64,000 nt of DNA from the IMG/VR virus record IMGVR_UViG_3300045988_162372; one strand, 5' to 3'. Position numbers and translations under genes: made by a program. Positions 31,099 through 50,937 of the stretch are shown here, piece after piece. How positions within the stretch are numbered: position 1 is the first letter of the stretch; every line of letters begins with the position of its first letter. Below the pieces are notes generated by a model. That model ran no database searches and had not been told where the DNA came from. It saw only the letters and a program-made list of their open reading frames with translations. The DNA comes from a virus.

Positions 31099-31100
31099 AG

Positions 31101-33409: not shown

Positions 33410-34078
33410 TCATTTTACAAGATTAAAATCATAGACAAACACATAAGGATTACTTTCCCAAGTACCCTTACCACTCACCTTATCAATAAGTTCAGCATAC
33501 GATTCTTTTGGAGATGCTTTGAAGTAAATCTTACTACCGTTTGTCTTGTCGTAATTTACATAGTATTTATGTGCAACTCCATCCCATTCCAATCCTTCCT
33601 TCAAGCAATCTTCATCGCTTATGTCTTGCAACCGCTGTATGCAGACGTTGGTGATGCGGATTTGGTGGGGCATGTATATAGATTTCACATACATTTTGTT
33701 AGTATATGCAATAGGAGGTATAGCTACATCTTTACCATCTTTTATAAAGAACAAGAACTCATCAGTGTCTCTATAAGCGTAACATTTATATCCTGCATCT
33801 TTATAGGATTGAGCAATAGCAACTATTTCACCTACCTTATATTTAGGATGATTTAATAGATAATTGAAACATTCTTTCTTTTCTGTCTCAGACATATTCT
33901 TCACTCTTAATGCAAAGTCATTTTCCCAATTCTCTATGTCTTCGTCATCCCAATCAAAATCAGGATTAACCCTTTCAAAGGCATCAGATGTCTTTATTAT
34001 TCTTCTTGTCTGAGTCTTTCTACCGTCAAGCACCGCTTTCGTGAGCAAAAATTTATCATTGAACATTATCTTCTGCAT
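33410..34078 (-). CDS. ASCH-domain-like protein
   Basis: The N-terminus KAVLDGRKTQTRRII is typical of phage ASCH proteins. Confidence 0.55.
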   Translation of the reverse strand: MQKIMFNDKFLLTKAVLDGRKTQTRRIIKTSDAFERVNPDFDWDDEDIENWENDFALRVKNMSETEKKECFNYLLNHPKYKVGEIVAIAQSYKDAGYKCYAYRDTDEFLFFIKDGKDVAIPPIAYTNKMYVKSIYMPHQIRITNVCIQRLQDISDEDCLKEGLEWDGVAHKYYVNYDKTNGSKIYFKASPKESYAELIDKVSGKGTWESNPYVFVYDFNLVK

Positions 34079-34497
34079 GACATCACCTCCATTGTTGCTT
34101 CATTCTGATGCCCATTAGCAAAATACGGCTGTTGATACTCACGTCCTTGCTCATCAATGCACTCAAAACGGAAATATAAACTGTATAGACATTTTATATT
34201 GTAATCGCTAATTACTCTGCCTATATGTGACCGATGTCTTGTTCCATTACCACATTCATTTGCCATTTTATCATAATCAGGAATGGCTGCGGCAACTATA
34301 TTGCAAAACACTCTCCATTGCTTTTTAACAATTTCTGCATTGCGCTGCACGTATTGGTTATATTCAAGTTCGACTTTACGACCTATTACATCGTTAATAC
34401 TATTGCATTTTGACAACAATACGTCATATTCCAATGCCTGTTCTTCGGAATCAAACCTTGTTCCGTCATTGCATTCGTAAATAGTTATCTTCTTCAT
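34066..34497 (-). CDS. Hypothetical protein
   Basis: First ATG (the track start 34506 is GTG). Confidence 0.55.
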   Translation of the reverse strand: MKKITIYECNDGTRFDSEEQALEYDVLLSKCNSINDVIGRKVELEYNQYVQRNAEIVKKQWRVFCNIVAAAIPDYDKMANECGNGTRHRSHIGRVISDYNIKCLYSLYFRFECIDEQGREYQQPYFANGHQNEATMEVMSCRR

Positions 34498-34595
34498 AAT
34501 CCTCACTTTTTAATTAGTTTAATTACTTTCTGCAATCCTACTTCGAGAGCTTGCTCATAATTATCAAATCTTTCATATAAATTGTTTCAAGGAAA

Positions 34596-34615
34596 CCCCA
34601 CCCTTTAGGATGGGG
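34596..34615 (-). other. GC-rich stem-loop in the leader of the 34497 gene
   Basis: The minus-strand RNA is CCCCAUCC-UAAA-GGGUGGGG: 8 bp including one G-U. The + strand equivalent has a C-A mismatch. It is followed by UUU. Confidence 0.5.
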
Positions 34616-34670
34616 AGGAATTTAAACTTGCCTTTTATTTGTTAAACATTTAATTTTATAATTCACTTTG

Positions 34671-34701
34671 CAAAGATACAAATGTTTTCGTAGAAAACAA
34701 A
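34671..34701 (-). promoter_or_regulatory. Bacteroidota-type promoter (minus strand)
   Basis: The + strand has CAAAGATA at 34671-34678, a 19-nt gap, then CAAA at 34698-34701. Confidence 0.65.
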
Positions 34702-34793
34702 ATTATTTTGCAAAAATCATAATATTTTATACGTTTTTTAATTTTACCAGATATTTTTTAATATAAAAGATAAAAAAAAAACAACTCACGGAA

Positions 34794-35183
34794 ATGCTGC
34801 TTACGACAAAGGTACATATTGACAATGGTTTTAAGGACTTCCAAGTCCTTAAAATGATGTGCTATCATTCTGCAAGAATGTACAATGTCGGTTTGTATTC
34901 CGTCCGTCAGCATTTTTTCAATACGGAAGAATACCTGTCGTATTACAACAATTATCATCTCTGCAAGACAAACGAGAATTACTCTCTTCTCATTACGGAT
35001 ACTGGCCAACAAATTCTCAGAATTGTGGACAGGGATATGCACTCGTTCTTCGGTCTATTGAAACTGAAGAAACTGGGCAAATATTCCAACCCGATACACT
35101 TGCCGAAGTACAAGGACGAGGAAGGTCTTATGACCTGTTACATAATCTCTATGAAAAATATTATAACTAAAAGTTGCGATTAA
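34794..35183 (+). pseudogene. Truncated TnpB (IS200/IS605-family OrfB, RNA-guided nuclease) N-terminal fragment
   Basis: SARMYNVGLYSVRQHFF...YSLLITDTGQQILRIVDRDMHSFFGLLKLKK...PKYKDEEG matches the TnpB N-terminal region. It stops at 129 aa, so no RuvC part is present. It is on the opposite strand to all its neighbours. Confidence 0.55.
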
Positions 35184-35200
35184 TAATACTTTATAAACCA

Positions 35201-35713
35201 CTATATCACTATCACTTCTTTTTGGAAATTGCTGCTTTTTTGAACAGACACATTTTTATTTAATTTTTTATATATGTTAATAGAACAATCATGAAATCTC
35301 CATAATAATTTTAAGTCTCTAATAGCTTCAGAATTATTTATGAAATCTTCTTTCTCTTTTTCTGATAATATTACTTCTTTATCTAATTTTCTTGTATTGT
35401 AAAAATAGTCCTTTACACGTTTAAATAGTGCATTATTTTTTTCAGAATTTTTAACAATACATTCTTCGTATAATTTTAAATCTCTAAAAATTGAATCATT
35501 ATTTTCTTTAATAACTTTTTGTTCAAGAAAATCAATCTGTCTTTTTTCAGGTTCTTTATTCTGAAAAATAAATTTCATTTGTTTAACATGTAATCCGAAT
35601 GAAAATGCTAAACTATGATACATTTGTCTTTTCTTATCCATATTTAATATTTTTATTGCTTTTTCATTTGGCTCGGATATCTTAAAAGTTTTGTGTTTTT
35701 TACTTTTTTCCAT
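35201..35713 (-). CDS. Hypothetical K/N-rich protein
   Basis: 170-aa ATG ORF, visibly more AT-rich than its flanks, behind its own promoter. Confidence 0.55.
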   Translation of the reverse strand: MEKSKKHKTFKISEPNEKAIKILNMDKKRQMYHSLAFSFGLHVKQMKFIFQNKEPEKRQIDFLEQKVIKENNDSIFRDLKLYEECIVKNSEKNNALFKRVKDYFYNTRKLDKEVILSEKEKEDFINNSEAIRDLKLLWRFHDCSINIYKKLNKNVSVQKSSNFQKEVIVI

Positions 35714-35742
35714 ATGTTTATCTCCTATTTTTATTTACATCA

Positions 35743-35774
35743 CAAAGATAAACAAAAAAGTGATAACAAACAAA
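35743..35774 (-). promoter_or_regulatory. Bacteroidota-type promoter (minus strand)
   Basis: The + strand has CAAAGATA at 35743-35750, a 20-nt gap, then CAAA at 35771-35774. Confidence 0.6.
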
Positions 35775-35788
35775 TATTTGTTACCACT
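35754..35788 (-). terminator. Rho-independent terminator (minus strand)
   Basis: AGTGATAACAAA/TTTGTTACCACT stem with 1 mismatch and a 6-nt loop, followed on the minus strand by T6. Confidence 0.55.
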
Positions 35789-35798
35789 TTAATATATT

Positions 35799-35909
35799 TT
35801 ATAGATTATTGAAGACTTCTTTTACTTCTTCCAAATAACCATCAAATTGTTTTGGCTTGTTTTGGAAAATCCATTCACAACCATCTATATCTACTGCAAT
35901 CCACGCCAT
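35799..35909 (-). CDS. Hypothetical small ORF (36 aa), possible gene remnant
   Basis: MAWIAVDIDGCEWIFQNKPKQFDGYLEEVKEVFNNL resembles the N-terminus of the 30547..30900 product. Confidence 0.35.
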   Translation of the reverse strand: MAWIAVDIDGCEWIFQNKPKQFDGYLEEVKEVFNNL

Positions 35910-36088
35910 AAGTAATCTCTTATTTAATTTTCCTATATACAACATTGTTGATTTCGTTTATATAACAATTTTCTAATGCAAATAGACGATTTAAATATAA
36001 TATACACAAATACAAGATGTTAATAATACAAAAAAATCTCACTCTCATTTGACGAAAGTAAGACCTTTTTGTTGATAGAGGATATATT

Positions 36089-36388
36089 TTAAAACCCGAC
36101 ATTATGCCATATCTTCATATCACCACTGTTCCCTTCTGGGTGATTAACAACTCTATCAACTTTATCCACCGCATTCTTTACCGCCTCAATTGCATTTTTT
36201 ATTTCCTCGCTGTCGTCCACATCAAAATCTTGATAAAAGGCATCAATTAGTTCATCGACTGAATCCTTGAATTTATAATAAGGTTCTTCGCATTGATATT
36301 TGCTTGCCCATTCTTTTAACATCTTGGATGCTATATCTAAAACTTTCTGTTTCAAGTCAGATTCTGTTAATACGATTGTTTGTTTCAT
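36089..36388 (-). CDS. Hypothetical acidic protein
   Basis: 99-aa ATG ORF. Confidence 0.55.
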   Translation of the reverse strand: MKQTIVLTESDLKQKVLDIASKMLKEWASKYQCEEPYYKFKDSVDELIDAFYQDFDVDDSEEIKNAIEAVKNAVDKVDRVVNHPEGNSGDMKIWHNVGF

Positions 36389-36531
36389 AATAATATAAAA
36401 TTACTTTGCTTTGCTTTATTTTAATATAAATATTAAAACGTAAACTTATAAATAACTAAATTGTACTTCTATTGATTCTATTTCTAAGACAATCGTAACG
36501 TTTTCATTTGAAAAAAAAAAATCTCAAATCG

Positions 36532-36939
36532 TTATTGCTGTTTCTTGCTATGTATATATTTCTTATAATATATTATTCGGGTTGGTAAACCATATTCTTT
36601 CGCCAAATCAATCATGTGTTTTGTTCCCCTGCTTTCACCATCCCAAAATGCGATTAAGGCATCAGCAACTTTAGTCATTTCCTTATTTCTTCTGTATCCT
36701 GCACTTTTACCATATTTTTTCCAATCAGCAGGATATTCTAATACTTTCAAACCAAATTCTTCTGCAAATTGTTTGCCTATTGTATCAGTACCTCTTGCAC
36801 AACCGCATATAATCTGAATATCACAATCTTTTAATACATCTGATAATATTTTTAAACATTTCTCTTTGAGAAGACTATAATCGTAGAATTGTCTTGAACC
36901 TGCTATGATTACTTTAAATATTGGTTTATTATTTTTCAT
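36532..36939 (-). CDS. DUF2493 / SLOG-superfamily (YspA-like) protein
   Basis: IIAGSR...ICGCARGTDTIGKQFAEE...PADWKKYGKSAGYRRNKEM...FWDGESRGTKHMI. Confidence 0.75.
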   Translation of the reverse strand: MKNNKPIFKVIIAGSRQFYDYSLLKEKCLKILSDVLKDCDIQIICGCARGTDTIGKQFAEEFGLKVLEYPADWKKYGKSAGYRRNKEMTKVADALIAFWDGESRGTKHMIDLAKEYGLPTRIIYYKKYIHSKKQQ

Positions 36940-37459
36940 TTAATTTTTCCAAAACATAATCAACAATTCTTTCAACTGATTTCTCATTTTTAACGCACTC
37001 GTAACTAATATCATACCTTTCAAGGATCGCCTTTACATCCTTATCAATTTGTTTTGCTTCATCAATAGTTTGTAGTCTTCCCTCAACCTGATAATCATTA
37101 TTTCTTTCAATAAAGAATAATTTATTGTTGAAACGATTGTATTGTTCTATTATAAAATCATTAAAATAATCTGATTTTTCTTTATTATAATATATTGAAA
37201 GTAATAAAGGACTATCAGTTATAATAACATCTACTTTATCTTTTAAACGCCATATTTTATGGAATTGTTTGCCAAAAATATATATCTGGTCATCCATTGT
37301 CTTAAATGATTCTTCCCAAACCTTATCTTTTGCAAATTCAAGAGCCATTTCGCAATTAATTCCTTTCTTTTTCAATTCGTAAAATACACCACTTGCAGTC
37401 GTTGATTTCCCCGAACCTGGGCCACCAATTAGGTTAATAATCAATGTATTGTCTTTCAT
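36929..37459 (-). CDS. P-loop NTPase / kinase-like protein
   Basis: Walker A motif LIGGPGSGKST. Confidence 0.6.
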   Translation of the reverse strand: MKDNTLIINLIGGPGSGKSTTASGVFYELKKKGINCEMALEFAKDKVWEESFKTMDDQIYIFGKQFHKIWRLKDKVDVIITDSPLLLSIYYNKEKSDYFNDFIIEQYNRFNNKLFFIERNNDYQVEGRLQTIDEAKQIDKDVKAILERYDISYECVKNEKSVERIVDYVLEKLNEK

Positions 37460-37464
37460 TTTAT

Positions 37465-37890
37465 TTATAAATTTAAATCGTTTAATACTTTTTCCACATT
37501 TCTCCTAAAAATTCCAACGTAATAATCAGATACACCTTCTGGGAAACGTTGGCTTAATTTTACACATTCCTTCTCTAACGTTTCTCTTGCATTTAACTGT
37601 GCTTGTTCTTTGGTAAAATGGCTGCACTCCCAATCAATTACCATCGCTTTCCAATCCATTTTCTTTTCGTTGAAATAATGGTCTAACCAATATTCAATAT
37701 GATGGTTGTTATGATGCCGATGCCATCTTTGTACATCTGGATAAACCATGAATATCTTTAACCACGGCTTTTCAATATCATGGAAAAGATATTTGAATTT
37801 CCAACATTTAAGATTCAACGCTGTCATTTGAAAAGCACACCAATGAGCAAACCAATATTTGAAACTGCTTCTTTCTTCTTTTGTAAACAT
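37465..37890 (-). CDS. Hypothetical His-rich protein
   Basis: HDIEKPW...RWHRHHNNHH; the first ATG is 37890. Confidence 0.5.
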   Translation of the reverse strand: MFTKEERSSFKYWFAHWCAFQMTALNLKCWKFKYLFHDIEKPWLKIFMVYPDVQRWHRHHNNHHIEYWLDHYFNEKKMDWKAMVIDWECSHFTKEQAQLNARETLEKECVKLSQRFPEGVSDYYVGIFRRNVEKVLNDLNL

Positions 37891-37892
37891 AA

Positions 37893-38324
37893 TCAATTAC
37901 TTTTTTCCGTTTCTTTTGCGTATTCAGTATATGTATCAAAAACATATTCAAAATTTTCTACATAATCAGGGAATTTCAATATTAACTTAGGGTTGTTTAA
38001 AACTTTGTTATAAACTTTCTCTCCGCAACCAACAATATGCGCACACAAATCCCAAAAGCCGTCATCACTAACACTTAGCACTTCACTATTATTCGGAAAA
38101 GCATATTTATCACCATATTTTAGCAAAGAATATTCTTTCACCTTGTCTTGCAATATTTCTCTAAACGCTTTTGCATAATGTTTTGCTTCAATAATATCGT
38201 CATTGGTTAATTTCATTTTCTTGAAAATCTCTTGTGCCAAACTGTATCTTTTCTTGGTTTGCAACTTGCACATATTTGGCCAATCCAGTTCTTTAACTAA
38301 TTCCCAAAATATATTCTTGTTCAT
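37893..38324 (-). CDS. Hypothetical protein
   Basis: 143-aa ATG ORF. Confidence 0.55.
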   Translation of the reverse strand: MNKNIFWELVKELDWPNMCKLQTKKRYSLAQEIFKKMKLTNDDIIEAKHYAKAFREILQDKVKEYSLLKYGDKYAFPNNSEVLSVSDDGFWDLCAHIVGCGEKVYNKVLNNPKLILKFPDYVENFEYVFDTYTEYAKETEKSN

Positions 38325-38328
38325 GTGT

Positions 38329-38817
38329 TTAATTTTGTTTCTTATTTAAAATCTTAATTACTTCATCGGCTTTTTCTTTCGTCAAACCACCATAATAGGC
38401 ATCACAATTGACAAAATTGTCTTTCTGTTCATATAACATATCAATATCGTCATCAATGATGCAATAGCTCTCTATTTTATCTTCTGGATGTTTATCAAGG
38501 TAGTCCTCCATATATTTCTTAATTTCCAATCCTCTTATTGTACCCAAATATGGAGTTATCTCAAAATCTAATGGACTACCTCTAAAACCTACATTCTTTA
38601 GAATGCTTCTTAAACCATCAGTATGTCTCCAAGAGCTTGATATGACAGTCTTAGCACTTGTCTCCTGAATGATTCTCATATATTGCTTAACAGCTTCTGG
38701 GTCAAATTCTGATAAAGGATATGGTCTTACATCTCCACTCTCCGCACGTTTCCTATAATACGTTTCTGAATTAAAGACTCCATCCACGTCAATGAATATA
38801 ATCTTAATTTTACTCAT
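38329..38817 (-). CDS. HAD-superfamily phosphatase
   Basis: IIFIDVDGVFNSE is HAD motif I (DxDG). This N-terminal pattern is seen in HAD domains associated with RNA-repair proteins. Confidence 0.6.
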   Translation of the reverse strand: MSKIKIIFIDVDGVFNSETYYRKRAESGDVRPYPLSEFDPEAVKQYMRIIQETSAKTVISSSWRHTDGLRSILKNVGFRGSPLDFEITPYLGTIRGLEIKKYMEDYLDKHPEDKIESYCIIDDDIDMLYEQKDNFVNCDAYYGGLTKEKADEVIKILNKKQN

Positions 38818-38833
38818 CTCTTTTTTACCCTTA

Positions 38834-39064
38834 TTATATACTCCACAAAACTCTTTTGTCTTCTATATTATCAATTGCTTCAAAACTTGAATCAGTCATT
38901 GGTGTCCATTCCCCGTGTTGTACTGAAAAATCAACTGTATCAATTGATAGGTAAACATCTGTTACATTGTTTACCCCGTTTTCCTTTAAGAAACGGATAA
39001 TTCTATTTACGACTTCTGTATGCAAGTCTTTCCACTTTTCTTCAAGTTCGTTTTTCGGTGTCAT
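38834..39064 (-). CDS. Hypothetical protein
   Basis: 76-aa ATG ORF. Confidence 0.5.
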   Translation of the reverse strand: MTPKNELEEKWKDLHTEVVNRIIRFLKENGVNNVTDVYLSIDTVDFSVQHGEWTPMTDSSFEAIDNIEDKRVLWSI

Positions 39065-39090
39065 AACCCTTATAGTATCTGATTTATGTA

Positions 39091-39366
39091 TTATCTAATG
39101 AAATTCCACTTTGAAATTGTAAAACTATAATCATATTCATCATTTCTACATTTCTCAAATGAAGAATATGTCAATATATCTTTTCTTTCTGGTGTTACAA
39201 TTATAATTGTTCCCTCTTTGGGTAGCTCATTAACTTCCAAAGGCAATGCTTTGATGATTATATCTGAAAAACCTATCTTATCATCAGCATTTTCATTATA
39301 AAATACCTTTGGCTCAGTATAATCTTCGACAATGAAATGTCTGTCATTTATTATTATCTCTTTCAT
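39091..39366 (-). CDS. Hypothetical protein
   Basis: 91-aa ATG ORF behind a promoter. Confidence 0.55.
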   Translation of the reverse strand: MKEIIINDRHFIVEDYTEPKVFYNENADDKIGFSDIIIKALPLEVNELPKEGTIIIVTPERKDILTYSSFEKCRNDEYDYSFTISKWNFIR

Positions 39367-39398
39367 GAACGTAATATTGCTATTTTAAATTATCATCG

Positions 39399-39430
39399 CA
39401 AAGATACTACAAATTAACCATATTACCAAA
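39399..39430 (-). promoter_or_regulatory. Bacteroidota-type promoter (minus strand)
   Basis: The + strand has CAAAGATA at 39399-39406, a 20-nt gap, then CAAA at 39427-39430. Confidence 0.65.
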
Positions 39431-39451
39431 TAACATCTTAACTAAAGTTGG

Positions 39452-40317
39452 TTAATAATTCGTAATGAAGACCTCATCTGTACTTTTAGACTTGTTTTTT
39501 GCATGGTAACTGCAATTTCCGTAGCTATGATTAAAATGATGTACGTTATACTTCTTTGACCATTCAATCAACATTTCATTCTTGTTTCCCTTGTTTTCAA
39601 ACACATTGGATAAACCAAATCTTATTTCTCTTTCATTGAGATTATCCAATAATTCATATAATTGTCTCTCCTGTGTTTCATTCCATCCGTCCTGCTCATT
39701 GTATGAGGCACAAGTTATCAAATAAGGTGGGTCGCAATATACATAATCATCCTTTGACAACTTATCAACCTTTAATTCTGTGAAAGATTTATTTGTAAAT
39801 ATTACATCTTTTATTGTCTTATGGAAATTAATCAGATTCTGTTCTATTGTCTTATTAAATTGACTTCTATTCTTTCCAAACGGCATGTTATATTCGCCTT
39901 TTGAATTAAACCTTATCTGATGATTAAATGAGTAACATATCAAAACGAATAAGTCTATTGGATCTTTTTCTGTACTTTTATTATACATATTCCTGAAAAC
40001 ATTATAGCTTTCCTGATTATCTATTGTAAGATTATATTCCTCTATTTTGGAATATATTTCCTTTAAAATGTCATCAAGTGCCCTTGTCTGAAATGTCTTA
40101 AATATATCAATAACTGACCCGTTAATGTCATTGGCTATACGTTTCTTGGCATTGACATTTGCAACTACATTTCCACCACCAGTAAATAAATCTACAAACG
40201 TATTTATTTCATTTTTATGGGGGGGGGGAGTAAAATTATTGGTAATAGCTGTGGTAGCAATTTGTATTTTCCACCTGTGTAATTGAGTGGTGATTTAATC
40301 AATTTATTTCCATCCAT
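39452..40317 (-). CDS. dam: T4-Dam-like DNA adenine methyltransferase, frame broken at a C10 (G10 on +) tract
   Basis: The N-terminal fragment (ATG 40317) reads MDGNKLIKSPLNYTGGKYKLLPQLLPIILLPPP.. and stops at 40204. The downstream frame reads ..TFVDLFTGGGNV..YCDPPYLITCASYNE..KKYNVHHFNHSY..TDEVFITNY. The two frames join with 11 or 8 C but not with 10. Confidence 0.8.
40219..40228 (-). repeat. Homopolymer C10 (G10 on + strand) inside the dam coding sequence
   Basis: Counted directly: tttatGGGGGGGGGGag. Confidence 0.95.
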
Positions 40318-40335
40318 ATATTCTTTATTTTTCTG

Positions 40336-40367
40336 CAAAAATACAACAAGTTTTACTTATAAACAAA
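40336..40367 (-). promoter_or_regulatory. Bacteroidota-type promoter for dam (minus strand)
   Basis: The + strand has CAAAAATA at 40336-40343, a 20-nt gap, then CAAA at 40364-40367, 19 nt upstream of the ATG at 40317. Confidence 0.65.
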
Positions 40368-40532
40368 TATACTATGTTAAACAAAATAAAAATACCACCG
40401 TATTTCACAACAAAGTGGTATCATGATTTAGGCTTTTACCAAGTTCTAACAACAAAAGATATTTGACTATGCCTTTAATATTGCAAATGTACTACCTTTG
40501 TGTTAAACTGCAAAATATTTTCTTGACTTTTT

Positions 40533-41738
40533 TCAATCTTTTATCTCAAAAACGTCTTTAGCAGTAACTTGTTTCGGCTTTTCTTTCCTGTTTATCTTTT
40601 CATATTTCTCATCAATAATTATCAAATCTTTCCATTTGTCAAGTAGACCTGAATTATTAAGAAAGAATTTCCTTATGTTGTAAGTGTTATAATGCTTCAT
40701 ATAACCAATATACGAGTTAACGGTCATTATAAGTTTATCCAATCTCTTTTCATCAGGATTATTGAATAAGTTTCTCAATTTATAATACAATGAACCTTTT
40801 GTTCTATTCAAAACATATATTCTATTGGGTTTTATAACACTTCCAATAAACTGCACACCTTTTGTATAATGTTGAAAATATCTTTTATTTGGATGAATTG
40901 TCAATTTCAATTCCCTTTGGGCAAATTCAATTATCTTGTCCACCGAACTTTTCAATTTCTCTTTATCCGAGGATACTATCATAAAGTCATCAACATATCT
41001 GCCATAATATTTAAAACCAAGCGTTTCCTTGATAAATCTATCGAGTTTTGTCAAAAAGAAATTGGCAAAAATCTGTGATGTCAAATTACCAATGGGTAGT
41101 CCTCTTTCATATCCTACATTAAACAAACTCTTATTGGAGTCTAATTTAGCCCATAACGACTGGTCACCTCTTTTCTCGCAATTTAATTCTGGATGATGTA
41201 GAACAATCTGTTTGCATAATTCCCTAAGTTTCTCTTTCTTCCTATCATTTTCATAATATTCCACAATAAAATCGTCTATCATATCAGCCAATAACTGCTT
41301 ATTAATGCTCATAAAGAACGACTTTATATCCATCTTTAAAATCCAAGCATCCTTTGTATAATTCTCGGTACATTCCTTTATATACTCAAACATTGTTTTA
41401 ACGCCATACAATACACCCTTGCCCTCCATACACGAAAAGCTTTCTTTGATAAAATATTTTTCAAAATATGGCATTAATTCCTTGATGACAAGATGGTGTA
41501 CAATTCTATCCCTGAAATCGGCAGCAAATACCTCACGATAAACTGGAAATGTAACAACAAATGCTATTGACTTACCAATTTCGTATGTTCCATCGTTAAT
41601 ATCATCACATAAACGTGTGACTTTTTCTATATAGTCAATTTCGAACTCTCGTGCATTACTTGTATTTCTTTTGTTCTTAATACAATCTTCATACGCCTCG
41701 AAAACCTCACCGTAGCTAAAACAATATGCTTTTGCCAT
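40533..41738 (-). CDS. DGR reverse transcriptase
   Basis: YGRYVDDFMIVS (YxDD motif) and LPIGNLTSQIFANFFL (the (I/L)GxxxSQ motif characteristic of DGR RTs); immediately downstream of TR. Confidence 0.9.
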   Translation of the reverse strand: MAKAYCFSYGEVFEAYEDCIKNKRNTSNAREFEIDYIEKVTRLCDDINDGTYEIGKSIAFVVTFPVYREVFAADFRDRIVHHLVIKELMPYFEKYFIKESFSCMEGKGVLYGVKTMFEYIKECTENYTKDAWILKMDIKSFFMSINKQLLADMIDDFIVEYYENDRKKEKLRELCKQIVLHHPELNCEKRGDQSLWAKLDSNKSLFNVGYERGLPIGNLTSQIFANFFLTKLDRFIKETLGFKYYGRYVDDFMIVSSDKEKLKSSVDKIIEFAQRELKLTIHPNKRYFQHYTKGVQFIGSVIKPNRIYVLNRTKGSLYYKLRNLFNNPDEKRLDKLIMTVNSYIGYMKHYNTYNIRKFFLNNSGLLDKWKDLIIIDEKYEKINRKEKPKQVTAKDVFEIKD

Positions 41739-41981
41739 ATAGTGTTTATGAATTAATTATTTTATACATAAATAAAGGTTGGCTGTAAATTATAGCCAAC
41801 CAAATCATCCTTTTTGGGGATTAATTTCTGTAAAAAAACAGCCTGTGCATTTTATAATCAAAGGAAGGACGCACGTAATTGCTATTCCACTTATTGTTCC
41901 AATTGTTCAGATTCGCATTGTTCGTATTGCAATTCCAAGCATTCGTGGAGCTATTCTCGGCAGAAGCCCAGTAATTCGTAC
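41739..41981 (-). ncRNA. DGR template RNA region (TR plus a 120-nt spacer up to the RT start)
   Basis: No credible ORF. It contains TR and a spacer with the hairpin GGTTGGCT(41777-41784)/AGCCAACC(41794-41801). Confidence 0.55.
41859..41981 (-). repeat. DGR template repeat (TR)
   Basis: 123 bp matching 42729-42851 (offset 870). All 20 mismatches are T on the + strand, which is A on the sense strand, in TR. Confidence 0.9.
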
Positions 41982-42152
41982 ATTGTGCTATCTGGAATAC
42001 ATCAATCAAGACATATTATTAACGACCCTTTCGAGCTGTGTAGCACCCTTATAAAATTTCGCCGAATGGGATTCGGTAATCTTTCACAAGCTTCGGTCTC
42101 TCCTGTTTGCATGATTTTCTAATCACTTAACGCAAAACAAAACTCTGCCTTT

Positions 42153-42542
42153 TCAATGATAAATAGTTTCTTGTTTTGAAAAATTTGCGGTTTTTTCGGT
42201 AAAACCTCTCCATTTTATGAATTGTTCATGTATATTTTTCATCAATGGGTAAATGTTGGAAAATTCCTTTGCACTTAATAGCTTTAAATCTATACATAAT
42301 TTCATGCACAACTTTATATTCTCAAAATAACACTGGAATTGTTTCATATATTTTAATCTCTCTGACATATTCTCCGTAGTGTTAATTATGTTAATCAAAG
42401 ACAACATTCTAATTGCAGATCGTTTTGCTTCTTCACCAATTATATATTTATAAGATTTATTAATTTTATTTATTTTCGGTAATAATAATTTTACCATCTC
42501 ATAGGAGTCAACAAAAATCTGTAGTTTTGTATAATGTCCCAT
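42153..42542 (-). CDS. avd: DGR accessory variability determinant (Avd-like four-helix-bundle protein)
   Basis: 129 aa, helical, lying between the target and TR as in BPP-1. The pattern LQIFVDSYEMVKLL..K..KYIIGEEAKRSAIRM.. resembles Avd / S23-IVS family proteins. Confidence 0.7.
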   Translation of the reverse strand: MGHYTKLQIFVDSYEMVKLLLPKINKINKSYKYIIGEEAKRSAIRMLSLINIINTTENMSERLKYMKQFQCYFENIKLCMKLCIDLKLLSAKEFSNIYPLMKNIHEQFIKWRGFTEKTANFSKQETIYH

Positions 42543-42590
42543 AATACTTGTTTCATTTTTTATTTTTATTATTTATGTGGAAATTAAAAG

Positions 42591-42621
42591 TTCTATGCGC
42601 TCGCTACACTCACGCATAGAA
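42591..42621 (-). promoter_or_regulatory. Stem-loop between target gene and avd
   Basis: TTCTATGCG/CGCATAGAA 9-bp stem with a 13-nt loop. Confidence 0.55.
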
Positions 42622-42644
42622 ACTTCAGCCTTTCATTACAATTA

Positions 42645-42668
42645 ATTGTGGGGATTTATCCCCACAAT
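42645..42668 (-). promoter_or_regulatory. GC-cored 10-bp stem / 4-nt loop hairpin downstream of VR (candidate DGR target-recognition hairpin or terminator)
   Basis: ATTGTGGGGA-TTTA-TCCCCACAAT, 44 nt past the target stop codon and 60 nt past the VR end. Confidence 0.6.
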
Positions 42669-42711
42669 AAACAAGCGTTGCTTGCTAAATACGCTTAAGG
42701 CTAATAGAGGC

Positions 42712-45354
42712 TTAATCAGCCTCAATAGCAAAGGAAGGACGCACGTAATAGCTACCCCACTTAATGCCCCAAAAGCCCAGAAGCGCATAGTTCGTACCGC
42801 AATGCCAAGCATACGTGGAGCTACCCTCGGCAGAAGCCCAGTAAGTCGTACCATCTCTCATTGGATAGCAATTTCCTGTAGTATAACCACCTTCACCTGC
42901 AATAATCTTATCACATGCTTTCTTTATAAGATACATTTGAGTAAATTGATCCCATAAATCTGCTCCGTCAGGTAAGAAACAACGTTTATTGGCAACACTA
43001 CCAGAACCGTGTGATGTAAGATTGTACATATTTACGAATTCCACTGCATCATACTTATCAGTACCAGTCTTCAAGTAGCCACTTTCTGCTGTATATGTCG
43101 CCATACTTTTATCTACACGCCAATCATTGATAGCCTTTGTATATGCTTCACCATTATAACGAGTGGTATTTCTAGTTGCTGTTGCACCTTCTTCATCCCA
43201 TGTAAATTTATTGTAGCCAACTTCTACATTTGATGTATTGGTAATCGTTGTGATATCCTCAGCATTTACTTGTCCATTCGTCCACTGTCTTGTAGTGTCG
43301 TTTAATACAGTTGCATAAATCTTATGAACCGCACCACCCGCATCACTTGCAACTACGTTGCCAGCACCATTTGCAATAGTCGGTGTTGAAACAGTAGGAT
43401 TAATATAAGTATCTGCATACACAATACCAATGGGTACATTACTTGAACTATATTTATAGTCTTTAGGATCTACCATCGTGTTATCGGCAAGAACAATTGC
43501 ACCAACTTTACCTTCAGAGAATTTTCTGTTGCCATCACCTCCTAATTCAAGACAAACAGTATTATTATCGGAAAGATTTGTTTTTGCAAAAGCACCATAC
43601 CATCTTTGAATACCTTCATAAGTATTCCAATCAGGATTAGCTTCTGGAAGAGCAGATGCAAGTGCTGTACATCCGCCAAAAATGCCTCTTGCATTAGCAA
43701 CCTTCAAGTTTGCAAGACAAGTTGCAGGAATTGAAGTAAGACTTGTGCAGTTACCAAACATTCTTTCCATCATAAGGTTTTTACCAGTCATTGCTTCAAG
43801 CAATCCACTAGGAATTGAAGTAATACCGCTACCATAGAAAGCATCTCTACAGTTAATATTATCTGACTTGATATTATAGAAAGCATCAGAAGCAAATCCT
43901 GTAATACCCTTACAGTTGTAGAAAGCCTGTCTCATATCAGTTAATTTACTTAAACCTCCAATAAATTCTCTATCAACTGTACCAGTGATCGATGTACAAC
44001 CATAGAATAAACGATATATAGTCGTTACATTAGGACAATCAGCGAACAAATCAGATGAAATCTCACCATTCATTTTTGAACAATTTGCAAATACTTCTGA
44101 CGCATTCGTAAGTGCTGTTAACCCTGCAAACATTCCAGTAGGTATTGAGCCAGTCATATTGGTATTATAAGCAAACATACCTGCTACGGTTGTTACGTTA
44201 GGACAACCATCAATTATTTTAATAGGTATAGGCTCTGTTAATCCTGTGCAATCTCTAAAAGTATAAGAAAAGTCTGTTGCTTTTTCACATCCACTAAACA
44301 ATCCTTTATTAGTATTTGCATTAAACGGCAAACTCTTTAATGAAGTACATTTTCTAAATGCATATGAAAAACTGGTAACATCAATGAACGAGTTAGTAGT
44401 GTCATACATAGGGATATCAGCTAGTTTACTACATCCTCTAAATGCTGATTCCATATTTGTAAGCAATGTATTACCCCACGCAATAACAGCAATTAAATAA
44501 TTTCTCATTGCATAATTGTCACTATTAACGATATTAGTACCATCAGAATCCTGAACATATTCACCATCTTCAACCCAATTGGATTGATCATCGCCTTGTG
44601 TATAAATTCTCTTGTAAGTACCATTGATAGTTACGTCATATACACCTGCACTTGCATAAGTATGCCAAATAGCTGCTTTATTATCAGCATAAGATTTTGC
44701 TTCATCAAAAATGCATTCAGGACTACCATCACCCCAGTCAACCGTATAACTATAAGTTGCTGTTGTACTTGGTTCAAAACTACCATCATCGCCGACTGAC
44801 ATTGTTGAGATACCGCTCTCTGTAACGCTATAGCCTAAATTTTCAGCAGCAGCTATGAATTCAGCAGCTTCTTCTTCCGAAAGATAATTATCAATATCAT
44901 TCATAGGAATAGTAAAGTTACCATCCATGATGGTATTCCCATATACATCCTGAATTAAATGTTCACTATAATCTGGCTCATTATCTACAGGTTCTGCTGT
45001 ATCGCCAGGATTTAAGTCCATAGTTGCAGGATCCATAGCAATAAGTTCTTTTGCAATCGTATTTAACGTTGCACCATTGTTACCTGCTACACCAAACTGC
45101 ATAGGAAGTACAACTGTACGTTTGTATGTCGTTGTAGCTTCTGGAATTTGGAATTCCAACACCATAGCGTTGGCACTTTTCAAACGTCTGATAAGTTCTG
45201 CATAACGGGCAAATGTTTCCGTATCACTCACATTAGTAATACCATTAAAACGCAACGCATTTGCAATATCTTCTTTTGAGCTTGCAATATTTGCCTTTGC
45301 ACCTTCAAGCTCCTGATATACAGCTTCAAGTTTTGTTTTTATTACGTTCGACAT
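42712..45354 (-). CDS. DGR target: tail-fibre/receptor-binding-like protein with BspA-type LRRs and a C-terminal lectin-fold (DUF1566-like) variable tip
   Basis: 880 aa. The central part has repeats of the form F..C..L..IP (AFRGCSKLADIP, AFRKCTSLKSLP, FRDCTGLTEPIP, FANCSKMNGEI, FYGCTSITGTV, FYNCKGITGF). The C-terminus is TYWASAEGSSTYAWHCGTNYALLGFWGIKWGSYYVRPSF. Confidence 0.8.
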   Translation of the reverse strand: MSNVIKTKLEAVYQELEGAKANIASSKEDIANALRFNGITNVSDTETFARYAELIRRLKSANAMVLEFQIPEATTTYKRTVVLPMQFGVAGNNGATLNTIAKELIAMDPATMDLNPGDTAEPVDNEPDYSEHLIQDVYGNTIMDGNFTIPMNDIDNYLSEEEAAEFIAAAENLGYSVTESGISTMSVGDDGSFEPSTTATYSYTVDWGDGSPECIFDEAKSYADNKAAIWHTYASAGVYDVTINGTYKRIYTQGDDQSNWVEDGEYVQDSDGTNIVNSDNYAMRNYLIAVIAWGNTLLTNMESAFRGCSKLADIPMYDTTNSFIDVTSFSYAFRKCTSLKSLPFNANTNKGLFSGCEKATDFSYTFRDCTGLTEPIPIKIIDGCPNVTTVAGMFAYNTNMTGSIPTGMFAGLTALTNASEVFANCSKMNGEISSDLFADCPNVTTIYRLFYGCTSITGTVDREFIGGLSKLTDMRQAFYNCKGITGFASDAFYNIKSDNINCRDAFYGSGITSIPSGLLEAMTGKNLMMERMFGNCTSLTSIPATCLANLKVANARGIFGGCTALASALPEANPDWNTYEGIQRWYGAFAKTNLSDNNTVCLELGGDGNRKFSEGKVGAIVLADNTMVDPKDYKYSSSNVPIGIVYADTYINPTVSTPTIANGAGNVVASDAGGAVHKIYATVLNDTTRQWTNGQVNAEDITTITNTSNVEVGYNKFTWDEEGATATRNTTRYNGEAYTKAINDWRVDKSMATYTAESGYLKTGTDKYDAVEFVNMYNLTSHGSGSVANKRCFLPDGADLWDQFTQMYLIKKACDKIIAGEGGYTTGNCYPMRDGTTYWASAEGSSTYAWHCGTNYALLGFWGIKWGSYYVRPSFAIEAD
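42729..42851 (-). repeat. DGR variable repeat (VR)
   Basis: It covers the last ~41 codons of the target ORF. 13 of the 14 TR AAY codons are altered here. Confidence 0.9.
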
Positions 45355-45396
45355 AATTTGATAAAAATCTATTGTTATTATGTTATTATTTTATAA

Positions 45397-45984
45397 TTAG
45401 ATGGTTAATTGAGAATGTATCTCTTGCGCACGAGGCATCAATGTGCCATCAATATAAGATATTGCTTCATTGATTTCTTGCTCAACAGCACCTACTCTAT
45501 TCTCCAACGCTTGCAGGTTTTCGATTGCGCCACCAGTCATCTCGCTGATTTTCTGATTAAGCACAATACCTTGTGCGGCAGACAATGCAACATCACTTGA
45601 ATTGGTTGTAAGGTTGTTAGCGACACCACCATTAGCTGCATTGTTTAATTTTGTATCCAGTTCTGCCTGTTGTGCGGTAGAAATAGGTTTGTCTACGTCT
45701 GATGTGTTATCCACATTCCCAAGACCAACTTGTTCTTTGGTCACACCGTGAGGATTGTCATTACGTGCTTCATGCATAGCAAGAGATTCGCCGATTGTCT
45801 GCATCATACCGTTTATCAATACACTTACTACTTCATCATCGGCATTCTTTGTGGATAGTGTTTCAACACCAGAAGCGTAGTTGATAGCAATCTCACCATA
45901 ATTCAATTGGTCTGCGGTAGGTATTTTAGGATTTCCATCCTCAAGTACTACATTGCTTCGTTTGTTTAAAACTGTTCTACTCAT
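45397..45984 (-). CDS. Tail-fibre-like protein
   Basis: LNYGEIAINY at the N-terminus. The NPHGVTKEQVGLGNVDNTSDVDKPIS motif is shared with the next ORF. There is a coiled-coil-like C-terminus. Confidence 0.6.
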   Translation of the reverse strand: MSRTVLNKRSNVVLEDGNPKIPTADQLNYGEIAINYASGVETLSTKNADDEVVSVLINGMMQTIGESLAMHEARNDNPHGVTKEQVGLGNVDNTSDVDKPISTAQQAELDTKLNNAANGGVANNLTTNSSDVALSAAQGIVLNQKISEMTGGAIENLQALENRVGAVEQEINEAISYIDGTLMPRAQEIHSQLTI

Positions 45985-46020
45985 TGATTACTTTTGATTT
46001 TTAATAAATTAGATTATTTT

Positions 46021-46362
46021 TTAGACATTATCTTCACACCATTTGATACGTGCCTCTAATGCACTTGTATCTTGTGCTTGCCAAGCATCTATTGTATTAT
46101 TCATTGAATAGCCTTGTGCCGCACTCCACGGAACTTGTGATAGATCAATACTCTGGCTTTCCTCTGTGGAATTGTAGATGTCAGAGATGTCCATTTTCTT
46201 TGATAGTGCCTCAGACAATGCTGTGGAAATAGGTTTGTTTGCGTCTGCAACATTCTCAACCTTGTCCAGACCCCATATTTGTGCGTTTGTTACCTCATGA
46301 GGATTACTTGCAGCAATATGGGCATCATACTGTGTTTTTAATTCGTTAGGGTTTAATGGCAT
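46021..46362 (-). CDS. Tail-fibre-like small protein
   Basis: NPHEVTNAQIWGLDKVENVADANKPIS is a copy of the motif in 45397..45984. The first ATG is 46362; the track start is GTG 46368. Confidence 0.55.
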   Translation of the reverse strand: MPLNPNELKTQYDAHIAASNPHEVTNAQIWGLDKVENVADANKPISTALSEALSKKMDISDIYNSTEESQSIDLSQVPWSAAQGYSMNNTIDAWQAQDTSALEARIKWCEDNV

Positions 46363-46421
46363 TTCCACTTTTTTTAATTGTTATTATTCATAAGATTTCT
46401 CTTTTTCATCTAATTTCGGCA

Positions 46422-46429
46422 CAAAAATA
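46422..46429 (-). promoter_or_regulatory. -7 box TAttTTTG (minus strand), candidate promoter of the fibre/DGR operon
   Basis: The + strand CAAAAATA lies 60 nt upstream of the ATG at 46362. Confidence 0.45.
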
Positions 46430-46837
46430 GAAAGAACCAACAAACTATTATATGCCTTCTATGAATTAATAGTCTATCAGCCTTTGCAATTTATATGGAG
46501 GTACGAATGCCATTCCATATTTATATGCCGTCATGTATGAAACTGGTAATAACCACATAAGACTGATAATAATCAATCATTCATATATAAATATTGTGTT
46601 TTGACGAGAAATAATCAAGAAATCTTATAAAATATTCGTTTATTTTTTTAGTAACAATGAGTAATTCCAAGCATCAATAATATAATATTTTCAAGTAACT
46701 GATTATACATTAACGCTTTCTCACAATATTTATATTTCAGTTCAATATATTTGATATATAATTTCTCTTTAAGCATATATTTTCTTTTATTCTTTTCTAT
46801 TATTATATACTTCACAATGTCTATTTTCAATAGTAAC

Positions 46838-50783: not shown

Positions 50784-50816
50784 AATCAATTTAATTTTTA
50801 AAGTTTTTCTTTGCTG

Positions 50817-50824
50817 CAAAGATA
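50817..50824 (-). promoter_or_regulatory. -7 box TAtcTTTG (minus strand)
   Basis: The + strand has CAAAGATA. Confidence 0.5.
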
Positions 50825-50937
50825 TAACAAATACCTGAATTATAGAAGTATTTTAATGTAAAAAATGTTAAAGAAGAGCAATCTTTCTTATATAAGACTA
50901 CTCTTCTTCTGAAAATAAAATAATAGATTTATATTTT

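Follow-up and report, generated by a model that had tools for sequence, protein, structure and literature searches.

A diversity-generating retroelement in a jumbo phage, with a second target gene in a related genome

The window analysed here, a stretch of 64,000 nt of viral DNA, carries on its minus strand a cassette in which a long target gene is followed by an Avd (accessory variability determinant) gene, a TR, a spacer and an RT gene. An earlier note on this DNA had read the arrangement as a complete diversity-generating retroelement (DGR), a reading supported by the TR/VR pair and by the RT and Avd matches. The coordinates it gave for the target, the Avd-like ORF, the RT and the 120-nt spacer agree with the ORF list. 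The features are as follows.

45397-45984 and 46021-46368, minus strand: two small co-oriented ORFs directly upstream of target gene 1, with phage tail-fibre repeats
42712-45354, minus strand: target gene 1, an ORF of 880 aa with VR1 at its C-terminus
42729-42851, minus strand: VR1 (variable repeat), 123 nt, the last 41 codons but five of target gene 1
42729-42744, minus strand: A-free, relatively GC-rich, IMH-like 3' end of VR1, sense GTGCGTCCTTCCTTTG, 16 nt, the same in TR
42700-42728, minus strand: 29-nt element directly 3' of VR1, sense CTATTGAGGCTGATTAAGCCTCTATTAGC, covering the last codons and the stop codon
42645-42668, minus strand: perfect 10-bp hairpin between target gene 1 and Avd, ATTGTGGGGA-TAAA-TCCCCACAAT, from the DNA fold
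42153-42542, minus strand: Avd, 129 aa, from Avd profile matches
41859-41981, minus strand: TR, 123 nt, with 38 A, 28 of them in 14 AAY codons
41739-41858, minus strand: TR-RT spacer, 120 nt, with three hairpins predicted in MFE folds (41828-41841, 41802-41827 and 41777-41801)
40533-41738, minus strand: DGR RT, 401 aa, with LPIGNLTSQ and YVDD

The repeat pair, its hairpins and the accessory genes

The TR/VR pair was recovered twice, by an independent ungapped alignment and by a repeat finder (family D1). TR and VR1 are 84% identical over 123 nt, homology ending at both boundaries in the ungapped alignment, and on the sense (minus) strand all 20 mismatches fall on TR adenines (10 to G, seven to T and three to C). 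Were 20 mismatches placed at random, the probability that all would land on the 38 TR adenines is 6.7e-13 (hypergeometric). Both methods reproduce the count in the earlier note of 20 mismatches in 123 bp, every one at a TR adenine, and the independent alignment gave none at a non-adenine TR position in the window pair. Read in the target frame, VR1 is changed at 13 of the 14 TR AAY codons (N to T, G, Y, H, G, Y, L, G, F, G, I, G and Y), exactly the list reported before, and the third codon positions of TR hold no adenine at all. The 14 AAY codons alone allow 15^14 = 2.9e16 variants, matching the previous estimate of about 3x10^16 tip variants; with every A-containing TR codon counted, the figure is 2.5e22 protein variants, and a stop can be reached from a single TR codon only (AAG). 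A spurious 62-aa ORF (41821-42009) overlaps TR.

The adenine-free 3' 16 nt had been described as identical in both copies, as the alignment confirms. Among the 15 VR copies read as DNA, 14 keep these letters; the exception, L041, has a single C-to-T change. This end is the IMH-like limit of homology and, by analogy with BPP-1, may play a role in homing. The 29-nt element that follows VR1 contains a hairpin core (GAGGCT-GATTA-AGCCTC, 42707-42723), and the DNA fold of 42640-42760 reaches -22 kcal/mol (z = -4.7). These 29 nt recur after the second VR in L041, L043, L044 and L045, and with one difference in L018; past the element the two VR loci diverge, and TR is not followed by it. BPP-1 has a hairpin downstream of its IMH (Wu et al. 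2018, PMC5758913), and by analogy the 29-nt hairpin probably guides replacement of VR by cDNA. The perfect hairpin at 42645-42668 could serve in termination or processing; lacking a T-run, it was passed over by the terminator scan.

Avd matches phrog_3206, 'Avd protein of DGR', at 4.9e-13, as well as PF22296 bAvd (8e-6; 26.8 bits, below the cut-off of 40) and NF033474 (1.8e-7; 31.4 bits, below the cut-off of 80). Its size and its place between target and TR agree with BPP-1 and phage F2. The 120-nt spacer is presumed, by comparison with the Sp region of BPP-1, to be part of the DGR RNA; the Avd-RT intergenic RNA as a whole has a fold z-score of only -1.5, and the DGR RNA region has no family match in Rfam. 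The RT matches RVT_1 of Pfam at 1.5e-19 and phrog_1423 at 1.3e-81, and both motifs earlier ascribed to it, YVDD and IGNLTSQ, lie in its ORF, the latter as LPIGNLTSQ. Its best PDB sequence match is 8ub7_A, the Brt of Bordetella phage BPP-1 (5.8e-26, versus 8e-9 for the group II RT 6ar1). In the phage collection searched, its closest relatives are the RTs of Bacteroides phages F2, F4 and Bacuni_F1 (45-47% identity), and phage F2 carries both Avd and an A-specific TR/VR pair. The identical RT protein occurs on 57 contigs, disrupted on none.

The target gene and its carrier

Target gene 1 is modular. Its N-terminal region has no function assigned by profiles and is followed by a PKD-like segment (about aa 190-245) and a DUF285/BspA-type LRR region (about aa 295-570; Pfam DUF285, 5e-12), with sub-threshold Pfam matches to LRR_5 and PKD_4. 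The protein also matches phrog_9915, a PHROG of unknown function, at 2e-42, and belongs to clusters, built at 90% identity, with 42, 159 and 27 members. The VR lies at the end of a C-terminal DUF1566/C-type-lectin-like domain (about aa 602-880). This VR domain has no Pfam match even at E = 10. The AlphaFold model proposed in the earlier note was obtained as an AF2 model of the last 279 aa (pLDDT 86.7), and it resembles a C-type lectin. Its best Foldseek match is 4eps, a Bacteroides ovatus pilin (E 3.8e-7), the Lcl C-terminal domain 8q4e giving E 0.047, and the BFVD matches are DUF1566 phage proteins (E 5e-9), some annotated as tail fibre. Thus VR1 is modelled within a DUF1566/C-type-lectin-like fold like that of pilin 4EPS, the reference fold of the largest Bacteroides DGR target class (bioRxiv 10.1101/2024.11.15.621889). 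The target architecture, once called unusual, proves ordinary: the gene order is that of BPP-1 and of Bacteroides phage F2, and the VR domain is 4EPS-like.

The carrier is a jumbo phage of roughly 340-365 kb and 31% GC, its related contigs measuring 312-367 kb, and its host is probably a gut Bacteroidota. The two ORFs upstream of target gene 1 match PF22337 Phage_fiber_rpt (1.7e-6) and many tail-fibre PHROGs. The label 'tail-fibre-like' given to the target therefore holds for its neighbourhood, whereas the protein itself shows only the PKD-like, DUF285/BspA-LRR and unknown-function PHROG matches. From its position in a tail-fibre gene cluster, target 1 is most likely a receptor-binding protein.

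Variation across assemblies and a second target gene

Transfer of sequence from TR to VR, specific to adenines, is ongoing or recent in natural populations. The window and an assembly from another sample, L009 (ERZ1314577 NODE_1), differ at 20 of 13,206 aligned nt; of these mismatches, 19 fall in VR, and each of the 19 coincides with a TR adenine. No two of the 15 VR copies read as DNA are alike, and substitutions occupy 270 of 570 A positions as against nine of 1,230 non-A positions. TR itself is almost unchanged between assemblies, apart from the single-SNP alleles T16G and T55C and two further A-to-T changes in L023. The T55C allele recurs in the cognate VRs of L010, L012, L014 and L046, and T16G in those of L011 and L013. 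The earlier description of the DGR as apparently active is borne out by L009 and by these copied TR SNPs; the assemblies establish activity for the phage lineage, rather than for the exact genome of the window at this moment. Non-A mismatches to the cognate TR occur as well in a few VRs (L013 and L042), at positions 16, 22 and 31 within the 5' third; to account for them, mixed strains or partial 5' conversion must be invoked.

The same pattern is seen in the proteins. VR peptides are all distinct in 40 of 40 long-target proteins, with an entropy of 2.9 bits at AAY positions and mostly at or close to 0.2 bits elsewhere (maximum 0.9). The residues found at AAY positions are the 15 that AAY codons can reach, plus one Trp and one Lys. 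Adenines in AAY codons are changed at a rate of 63% in the VR copies, other adenines at 2.7%; selection keeps the scaffold residues, adenines outside AAY codons being almost never changed.

No further TR-like or VR-like copy is present in the 64-kb window, but a search for additional VRs, as earlier suggested, does find one in related genomes. The second target gene encodes 346 aa, with an N-terminal domain of unknown fold, a DUF1566-like C-terminus and VR2 at its end. In ERZ4231321 NODE_2 (339,736 bp), a relative 93.8% identical to the window over the cassette region, the cassette occupies about 217-222 kb; the 346-aa gene, encoded on the other strand, is found at about 297-298 kb, some 76 kb away. 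TR and VR2 of this relative show 22 differences, 21 at A and one at position 0, the homology boundary, and the 29-nt hairpin element recurs unaltered after VR2. The pattern is the same in L041, L043 and L044, and L018 carries the element with one difference. Among 85 short-target proteins there are 65 distinct VR peptides. As judged from the repeat sequences, the same TR appears to serve two target genes in this phage lineage. The second target lies outside the window; by collinearity it would be found about 35 kb past the left end, and it is probably present in the 351,506-bp contig to which the window belongs, physical linkage to the cassette being seen only in the relative. The word 'complete' thus fits the cassette, from target through Avd, TR and spacer to RT, but not the whole set of targets in the lineage.

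Competing explanations and relation to known systems

Could the RT belong to another class, such as those of group II introns, retrons or Abi/DRT defence, and adjoin the repeat pair by coincidence? Its best NCBIfam matches are models of group II RT/maturase, retron St85 and Drt3a, yet their scores are well under the cut-offs (85 versus 300, 66 versus 235 and 59 versus 200 bits), and among solved structures BPP-1 Brt beats the group II RT by 17 orders of magnitude. The Rfam search turned up no intron or retron RNA, the nearest RT relatives all adjoin Avd and A-specific TR/VR pairs, and the motif is the DGR-type IGxxxSQ; coincidence is scarcely credible. Equally hard to credit is an origin of the VR diversity in homologous recombination or gene conversion among alleles, or in mixed strains assembled into chimeras. 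The target gene does have a mosaic body (87-99% identity between relatives, with the cassette at about 99%), and some VRs carry a few non-A differences in their 5' third. Recombination, however, cannot confine 270 substitutions to TR adenines, of which 47% are substituted against 0.7% of positions elsewhere, nor can it explain the restriction, one Trp and one Lys apart, to 15 AAY-reachable residues. A relic, its cassette intact but inactive and its TR/VR differences old, is very unlikely. The window by itself gives no date for the 20 changes, but L009, which otherwise agrees with it at 99.99% of positions in 13.2 kb, has a VR that differs at 19 adenine positions. The VR is particular to each assembly, VRs have taken up recent TR SNPs, and the RT is undisrupted.

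The role of target 1 is less secure than the mechanism, which would be the same were the protein another surface binder (a virion decoration or a mucus/glycan adhesin) or not a virion protein at all. This alternative is rather unlikely, but deserves weight: target 1 lacks a tail-fibre profile match, in fold it comes closest to a bacterial pilus adhesin and not to a phage fibre, and the second target lies among small, non-structural-looking ORFs. Against it stand the two co-oriented ORFs with tail-fibre repeats directly upstream, the resemblance of the LRR part to annotated tail proteins of Klebsiella phages, the tail-fibre-annotated BFVD matches and the finding that tail proteins make up most viral DGR targets (Roux et al. 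2021, PMC8144416). A receptor-binding protein is favoured.

The region is, with high confidence, a functional DGR of a jumbo phage that transfers sequence from TR to VR with adenine specificity and has a second target in a related genome. On the BPP-1 paradigm, minus-strand transcription of the cassette would yield an RNA that includes TR and the 120-nt spacer, and the RT, together with Avd, would reverse-transcribe this RNA, misincorporating opposite template adenines. The cDNA would then take the place of VR, with the A-free 3' end and probably also the 29-nt hairpin after each VR as guides. The codons randomised are 14 Asn codons in the C-terminal strands and loops of the DUF1566/C-type-lectin-like binding domain.

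The mechanism is known and very common in gut phages, and the novelty is modest while the evidence is strong. With BPP-1 (mtd-avd-TR-brt) the window shares the order of target, Avd, TR, spacer and RT, adenine-specific mismatches, a VR at the 3' end of the target in a C-type-lectin-type fold, an A-free repeat end, a hairpin after VR only, and Brt as the best solved-structure match. It differs in its RT, which is only distantly similar (E 6e-26, the alignment falling into two segments), in its VR domain, which is of DUF1566/CLec2-like and not Mtd type, and in its hairpin, which is richer in AT and has a core of 6 bp; the phage is also about eight times larger, with a second, non-adjacent target in its lineage. 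Bacteroides phages F2, F4 and Bacuni_F1 have the closest RTs in the phage collection searched (45-47%), Avd, the same order and a TR just upstream of RT. These temperate siphoviruses, roughly 30-40 kb in size, have short targets and a TR-RT spacer of about 40 nt, whereas the jumbo phage has a spacer of 120 nt, an 880-aa target with PKD-like and BspA-LRR modules, and one TR for two targets in its lineage. The VR domain also resembles those of the 'domain group 1' Bacteroides DGR targets, whose reference fold is the Type V pilin 4EPS, and DUF1566-type VRs form category 'd' of a survey of DGRs (Wu et al. 2018, PMC5758913). The use of one TR for several VRs, recognised by A-only differences, is shared with the DGRs of Treponema denticola and Legionella. 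Non-adjacent targets occur in 45 of 372 surveyed DGRs; phage-associated DGRs have theirs within 50 kb in nearly every case, and beyond 100 kb the targets are essentially non-phage (Wu et al. 2018, PMC5758913). Here, by contrast, about 76 kb separate cassette and second target within a single phage genome, and what is new is a DGR in a jumbo phage with a second, distant target sharing its TR.

The repeat pair and its cassette

The region is a diversity-generating retroelement (DGR) of standard mechanism in which every defining feature that could be tested was found, and it is almost certainly functional. The earlier note had interpreted it in this way, and that interpretation is supported by the adenine-specific differences between the template repeat (TR) and the variable repeat (VR), a DGR-type reverse transcriptase (RT), the accessory protein Avd, the C-terminal position of the VR in its target and the variation of the VR among assemblies. 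The top repeat family returned by a repeat finder for the window is the pair 41859-41981 (TR) and 42729-42851 (VR). In an ungapped alignment on the sense strand the two differ at 20 positions, 20/20 of them TR adenines (changed to G in 10 cases, to T in 7 and to C in 3). There are 38 adenines in the TR, and the probability that 20 randomly placed mismatches would all land on them is 6.7e-13. Homology stops at both borders, and the final 16 nt of TR and VR have the same sequence and contain no A. Translated in the target frame the TR reads TNYWASAENSSTNAWNCNTNNANLNNWNNKWNSNYVRPSF; it holds 14 AAY (Asn) codons, of which 13 are altered in the VR, and third codon positions are free of adenine. The VR ends five codons upstream of the target stop. 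The numbers that had been offered for this pair proved correct throughout, the independent alignment yielding the same two repeats with all mismatches at TR adenines. The elements are arranged as follows, in 5'-to-3' order.

Features of the DGR, in order along the minus strand
45354-42712, minus strand: target ORF, 880 aa, first in order
42542-42153, minus strand: Avd-like ORF, 129 aa, between target and TR
41981-41859, minus strand: TR, 123-nt repeat
between TR and RT ORF, minus strand: spacer, 120 nt
41738-40533, minus strand: RT ORF, 401 aa, last in order

This gene order is canonical and the VR domain belongs to a known type, so that the 'unusual target architecture' once ascribed to the locus is unsupported.

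RTs of the DGR clade are recognised by an [I/L/V]GxxxSQ motif together with YxDD. The RT contains LPIGNLTSQ (IGNLTSQ) and YVDD, and on these motifs would belong to that clade. It matches the profiles RVT_1 and phrog_1423, a phage RT family (1.3e-81). Its best PDB match, at 5.8e-26, is 8ub7, the aligned sequence of which is 100% identical to brt of BPP-1, the Bordetella phage with the reference DGR; a group II RT reaches only 8e-9. The closest phage RTs, with 45-47% identity, are those of the Bacteroides uniformis phages F2, F4 and Bacuni_F1, and these come from DGR cassettes. In the annotation of F2, bAvd adjoins the RT, and at the F2 locus and in four IMG/VR relatives the TR/VR mismatches fall almost entirely at adenines (12/12 to 13/14). 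Identity as a group II intron, retron or Drt3a RT was considered and rejected, the NCBIfam scores all lying well under their cut-offs. An Rfam search of 40000-46000 at E <= 1 gave no match, thus no intron or retron RNA, and no family for the DGR RNA. The Avd-like ORF matches phrog_3206, 'Avd protein of DGR', at 4.9e-13, and its matches to Pfam bAvd and NCBIfam DivGenRetAVD are significant and lie under the curated cut-offs; the cassette thus appears to encode the accessory protein Avd.

A Dam-type N6-adenine DNA methyltransferase gene adjoins the RT downstream (39452-40338, minus strand). It is split in the window by a 1-nt deletion within a C-run into the ORFs 40204-40338 and 39452-39988. Among related loci from other assemblies it is intact (288 aa) in L011, L012 and L042, and the 178-aa form of the window recurs in L009, L013, L016 and L046. 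The C-run may be a homopolymer subject to phase variation, or the split gene may be a pseudogene.

Variation in natural populations

An identical RT protein was found in 90 blocks of the assembly collection and on 57 contigs, including contigs of 312,870 and 364,413 bp. RT-bearing contigs of this size indicate that the carrier is a jumbo phage; a megablast of the locus against the INPHARED phages gave no match, which places it outside the GenBank phage records of that collection. The earlier description of the element as 'apparently active' is upheld by these populations, in which the VR differs among assemblies and is not monomorphic, while the TR is nearly invariant. Six independent loci each have a VR of their own, and their TRs show at most a single SNP. 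The alignment of the window with ERZ1314577 NODE_1 spans 13,206 bases and contains one gap and 20 mismatches, of which 19 fall at TR adenines inside the VR. All 15 VR copies read as DNA are distinct, with substitutions at 270/570 adenine positions as against 9/1,230 other positions. At the protein level, 40 different VR peptides occur among 40 sequences of the long target (the 880-aa ORF, target 1). The 14 AAY positions have an entropy of 2.9 bits, whereas most others are at about 0.2 and none exceeds 0.9. One Trp and one Lys aside, the residues found at AAY positions are the 15 to which an AAY codon gives access.

The direction of transfer, from TR to VR, is visible in TR alleles that reappear in cognate VRs: the single-SNP allele T55C in L010, L012, L014 and L046, and T16G in L011 and L013. 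Together these comparisons of sequence, as indirect evidence from populations, strongly suggest that transfer is unidirectional and active in nature. The adenines of the AAY codons are altered in 63% of cases, whereas the ten remaining adenines are altered in 2.7%, which argues for selection for the scaffold after mutagenesis.

A few loci depart from the general pattern. The VR of target 1 in L013 (4888-5010) and in L042 (4038-4160) differs from the cognate TR at the non-adenine positions 16, 22, 31 and 55, with a further such difference at 99 in L013. Positions 16, 22 and 31 lie in the 5' third of the VR, and the differences may reflect mixed strains or conversion tracts ending before the 5' end is reached. 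The TR of L023 (576-698) carries, besides T55C, two A-to-T changes at positions 5 and 26, both in AAY codons, and is in this respect unlike all other TRs. Two changes on adenines have P ~0.1, which is non-significant alone, and they raise the question of whether mutagenic homing occasionally reaches the TR. L021 and L023, independent short contigs, both break at about 42553-42555 of the window, between target and Avd. In L021 window positions 55667-56154 are joined straight to 42555, and L023 is without some 9 kb (about 29450-38531). These may be either structural variants or assembly breaks in a hairpin-rich intergenic region.

Mobile-element insertions vary among otherwise near-identical phage genomes. 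L010 has a resolvase and an IS605-type OrfB/TnpB downstream of the RT (7851-9696), and a LAGLIDADG homing endonuclease is found in several relatives (L011/L013/L042/L046, at about 8-10 kb).

Two targets and the hairpin beside their variable repeats

In target 1, Pfam identifies a DUF285/BspA-type LRR in the middle of the protein and, below threshold, a PKD-like segment; the last 263 aa gave no match at E <= 10. Since Pfam gave nothing there, the fold of the C-terminus was taken from AlphaFold2 (AF2) and Foldseek. When 1.84 billion representative proteins were searched exhaustively with HMMER, the C-terminal 278 aa had only 33 relatives, and 24 of these formed the input alignment for AF2. The resulting model is a confident one, with a pLDDT of 86.7 and a pTM of 0.87. 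Its best Foldseek match in the PDB is 4eps, a fimbrial protein of Bacteroides ovatus (E 3.8e-7), followed by 8q4e, the C-terminal domain of Legionella Lcl (DUF1566). Among viral models, several of the top matches bear the name DUF1566 and one is labelled a tail fibre protein. The C-type-lectin fold on which the earlier note had proposed to check the target is borne out by these matches to 4eps, Lcl_C and DUF1566, and the VR is thus predicted to sit at the C-terminus within a variation-tolerant C-type-lectin-type fold. The largest class of variable proteins in Bacteroides DGRs has 4EPS as one of its reference folds (bioRxiv 10.1101/2024.11.15.621889), and VRs of DUF1566 type form category 'd' in Wu et al. 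2018 (PMC5758913). Neither target reaches the gathering score of DUF1566/Lcl_C (PF07603), the second, short target scoring 21.8 bits against a cut-off of 34.9. As the likeness of fold is clear and the Pfam score falls short, the VR domain resembles DUF1566 in function and is not a member at the level of sequence.

The label 'tail-fibre-like' makes target 1 a putative tail fibre by its context: two upstream ORFs carry tail-fibre repeats (Phage_fiber_rpt). The target's own PHROG is of no known function. Its LRR part is about 29% identical to a Klebsiella phage sequence labelled 'tail protein' in one record. The body of target 1 (42712-45354) has 87-93% nucleotide identity to L010, L012 and L014, where the adjacent Avd-TR-RT segment is about 99% identical; a body so much more diverged than the cassette suggests a receptor-binding-like gene that is evolving or recombining fast outside the VR too. 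One relative, the 174-aa variant P0006, joins the initial 18 residues of the long target in frame to its final 156. Either this is a misassembly, or a natural deletion within the gene has left the VR domain alone.

Just 3' of the A-free end of the VR lies a hairpin, in the sense orientation CTATTGAGGCTGATTAAGCCTCTATTAGC, and the DNA fold of this region has z = -4.7. The element stands 3' of both known VRs and not 3' of the TR, which is followed by unrelated sequence. Within the repeat no sequence difference of the IMH versus IMH* kind was seen, the A-free 16-nt end being common to TR and VR. Across more distant relatives (the loci L001, L007, L017, L019, L020 and L022 and phage F2) the hairpin has no consistent structure and no covariation. 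A structured, self-priming DGR RNA would consist of TR plus spacer. MFE folding predicts three hairpins in the RNA of the 120-nt spacer; z is -1.5 for the whole intergenic RNA between Avd and RT, which gives no statistical support, and similarity among the relatives is either too high or too low for an analysis of covariation. Promoter and terminator scans gave no enrichment over shuffles and are uninformative.

The search for further VRs matching this TR, suggested in the earlier note, had a divided outcome: a scan of the 64-kb window with the A-masked TR found no additional copy, but a second VR is present in relatives. Scans of this type gave one match in IMG/VR and three in the metagenome collection, 0 of these contigs holding both cassette and second target. 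The IMG/VR match, to the A-masked 3' part of the TR, is in L018, a contig of 216,649 bp. It falls at the 3' end of a distinct 346-aa gene whose product starts MCLISQSLKPFVAKKD..., with neither Avd nor RT nearby. The L018 VR equals the TR at all non-A positions except 0, the homology border, and 55, where it has the T55C allele. The 29-nt hairpin element of target 1 comes next, with a single difference, and beyond it the two loci diverge. The short gene is common and hypervariable; it forms 55 clusters at 90% identity, some of 197 or 61 members, and occurs on contigs of 330-367 kb. Its VR peptides (65 distinct among 85 sequences) show the same entropy pattern as those of the long target. Cassette and short gene are found together on ERZ4231321 NODE_2_length_339736, the cassette at 215,757-226,962 (L046, 93.8% identical to window 38829-46727) and the short gene within 294,554-303,045 (L045) on the opposite strand. 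There the TR differs from the VR of target 1 at 20 positions, all A, and from that of the short target (VR2) at 22, of which 21 are at A and the other is position 0. It is thus very likely that the lineage uses a second, remote target, and the window's own genome probably does so as well. The gene is absent from the 64-kb window itself; collinearity would place it on the plus strand, some 35 kb before window position 1.

The C-terminus of the short target matches Lcl_C/DUF1566 below threshold. Its model (pLDDT 85.1) has a beta-rich N-terminal domain, and at full length it gave no significant Foldseek match in the PDB. The gene lies among small, early-looking and apparently non-structural ORFs, with DNA-metabolism genes as neighbours in related phages. 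In the more distant L019 and L020 this gene recurs, but its VR has diverged and no RT lies within 10 kb; such a VR presumably answers to another TR. In L045 a Y1 transposase and TnpB (2130-3804) adjoin the short target. A 306-aa ORF of the window (22137-23057, plus strand) is a distant paralogue of the short-target family (hhalign probability 96.7%, E 3.5e-10, both domains covered; Lcl_C below threshold) and is located at a strand-switch point. Having no VR that matches the TR, it would be an undiversified or former target-like gene.

The carrier genome and comparison with known DGRs

At about 22000-23100 of the window the GC skew and the coding strand flip: genes on the left lie on the plus strand, those on the right on the minus strand. 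The convergent blocks end at about 23057 (plus-strand ORFs) and 23106 (minus-strand ORFs), and the switch may mark a replication terminus or the boundary of two transcription modules. A dispersed repeat of 58-80 nt, with about 70-75% identity and in both orientations (7708-7787, 11831-11931, 19655-19756, 29874-29945 and 50815-50872), may be a phage promoter or regulatory motif. The window also carries a set for RNA repair and tRNA maturation (7791-9122, 14623-16167, 56781-58178 and 59072-60403), comprising an RNA ligase, a polynucleotide-kinase-like protein, a tRNA-nucleotidyltransferase-like gene and a second nucleotidyltransferase gene. There are no tRNA genes in the 64 kb. A tellurite-resistance-like gene lies at 25590-26714. 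The ORF 53049-54110 (minus strand) encodes a PurZ-sized adenylosuccinate-synthetase homologue of 353 aa (phrog_1211). A PurZ reading, implying a 2-aminoadenine genome, is unsupported, the best PDB matches being ordinary PurA (~1e-7); no DatZ/MazZ-like partner was found nearby, 6/8 of the ORFs scanned around it being without any Pfam match.

The cassette itself is not news, since the workings of DGRs are well understood and gut phages very often carry them; of the high-quality gut viral genomes with an RT, 85.7% have a TR/VR pair (Nayfach et al. 2021, PMC8241571). What distinguishes this DGR is that its host is a jumbo phage, that its two targets lie about 76 kb from one another and have a hairpin element in common, and that the public population data are unusually rich. 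Dozens of public assemblies with an identical RT, each with its own VR, amount to a natural experiment and a data set on tolerated adenines. It is a speculative and rather improbable extension that one DGR diversifies two functionally different binders, a large protein of the tail-fibre cluster and a small 346-aa protein, possibly an intracellular or secreted non-virion one, with the hairpin as a portable 'address tag'. If the small protein were a non-virion binder, for example one tracking variable host defence or surface factors, a phage DGR would here serve a new purpose, and the 29-nt hairpin would be a tag for recruiting new genes as DGR targets.

In a survey of 224 jumbo phages, C-type-lectin domains of the FGS type, which error-prone RTs diversify, were not found (Iyer et al. 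2021, PMC7824862); the present case is a phage of about 340-365 kb whose DGR is active. In phage-associated DGRs non-adjacent targets are known and nearly always lie within 50 kb (Wu et al. 2018, PMC5758913), whereas the distance of some 76 kb observed here in one phage genome is beyond that typical range. The hairpin flanking the VR mirrors the inverted repeat downstream of the IMH in BPP-1 (PMC5758913). That one TR serves two genes so far apart, both with the same 29-nt hairpin, supports the hairpin and the A-free end as a candidate portable signal for target recognition.
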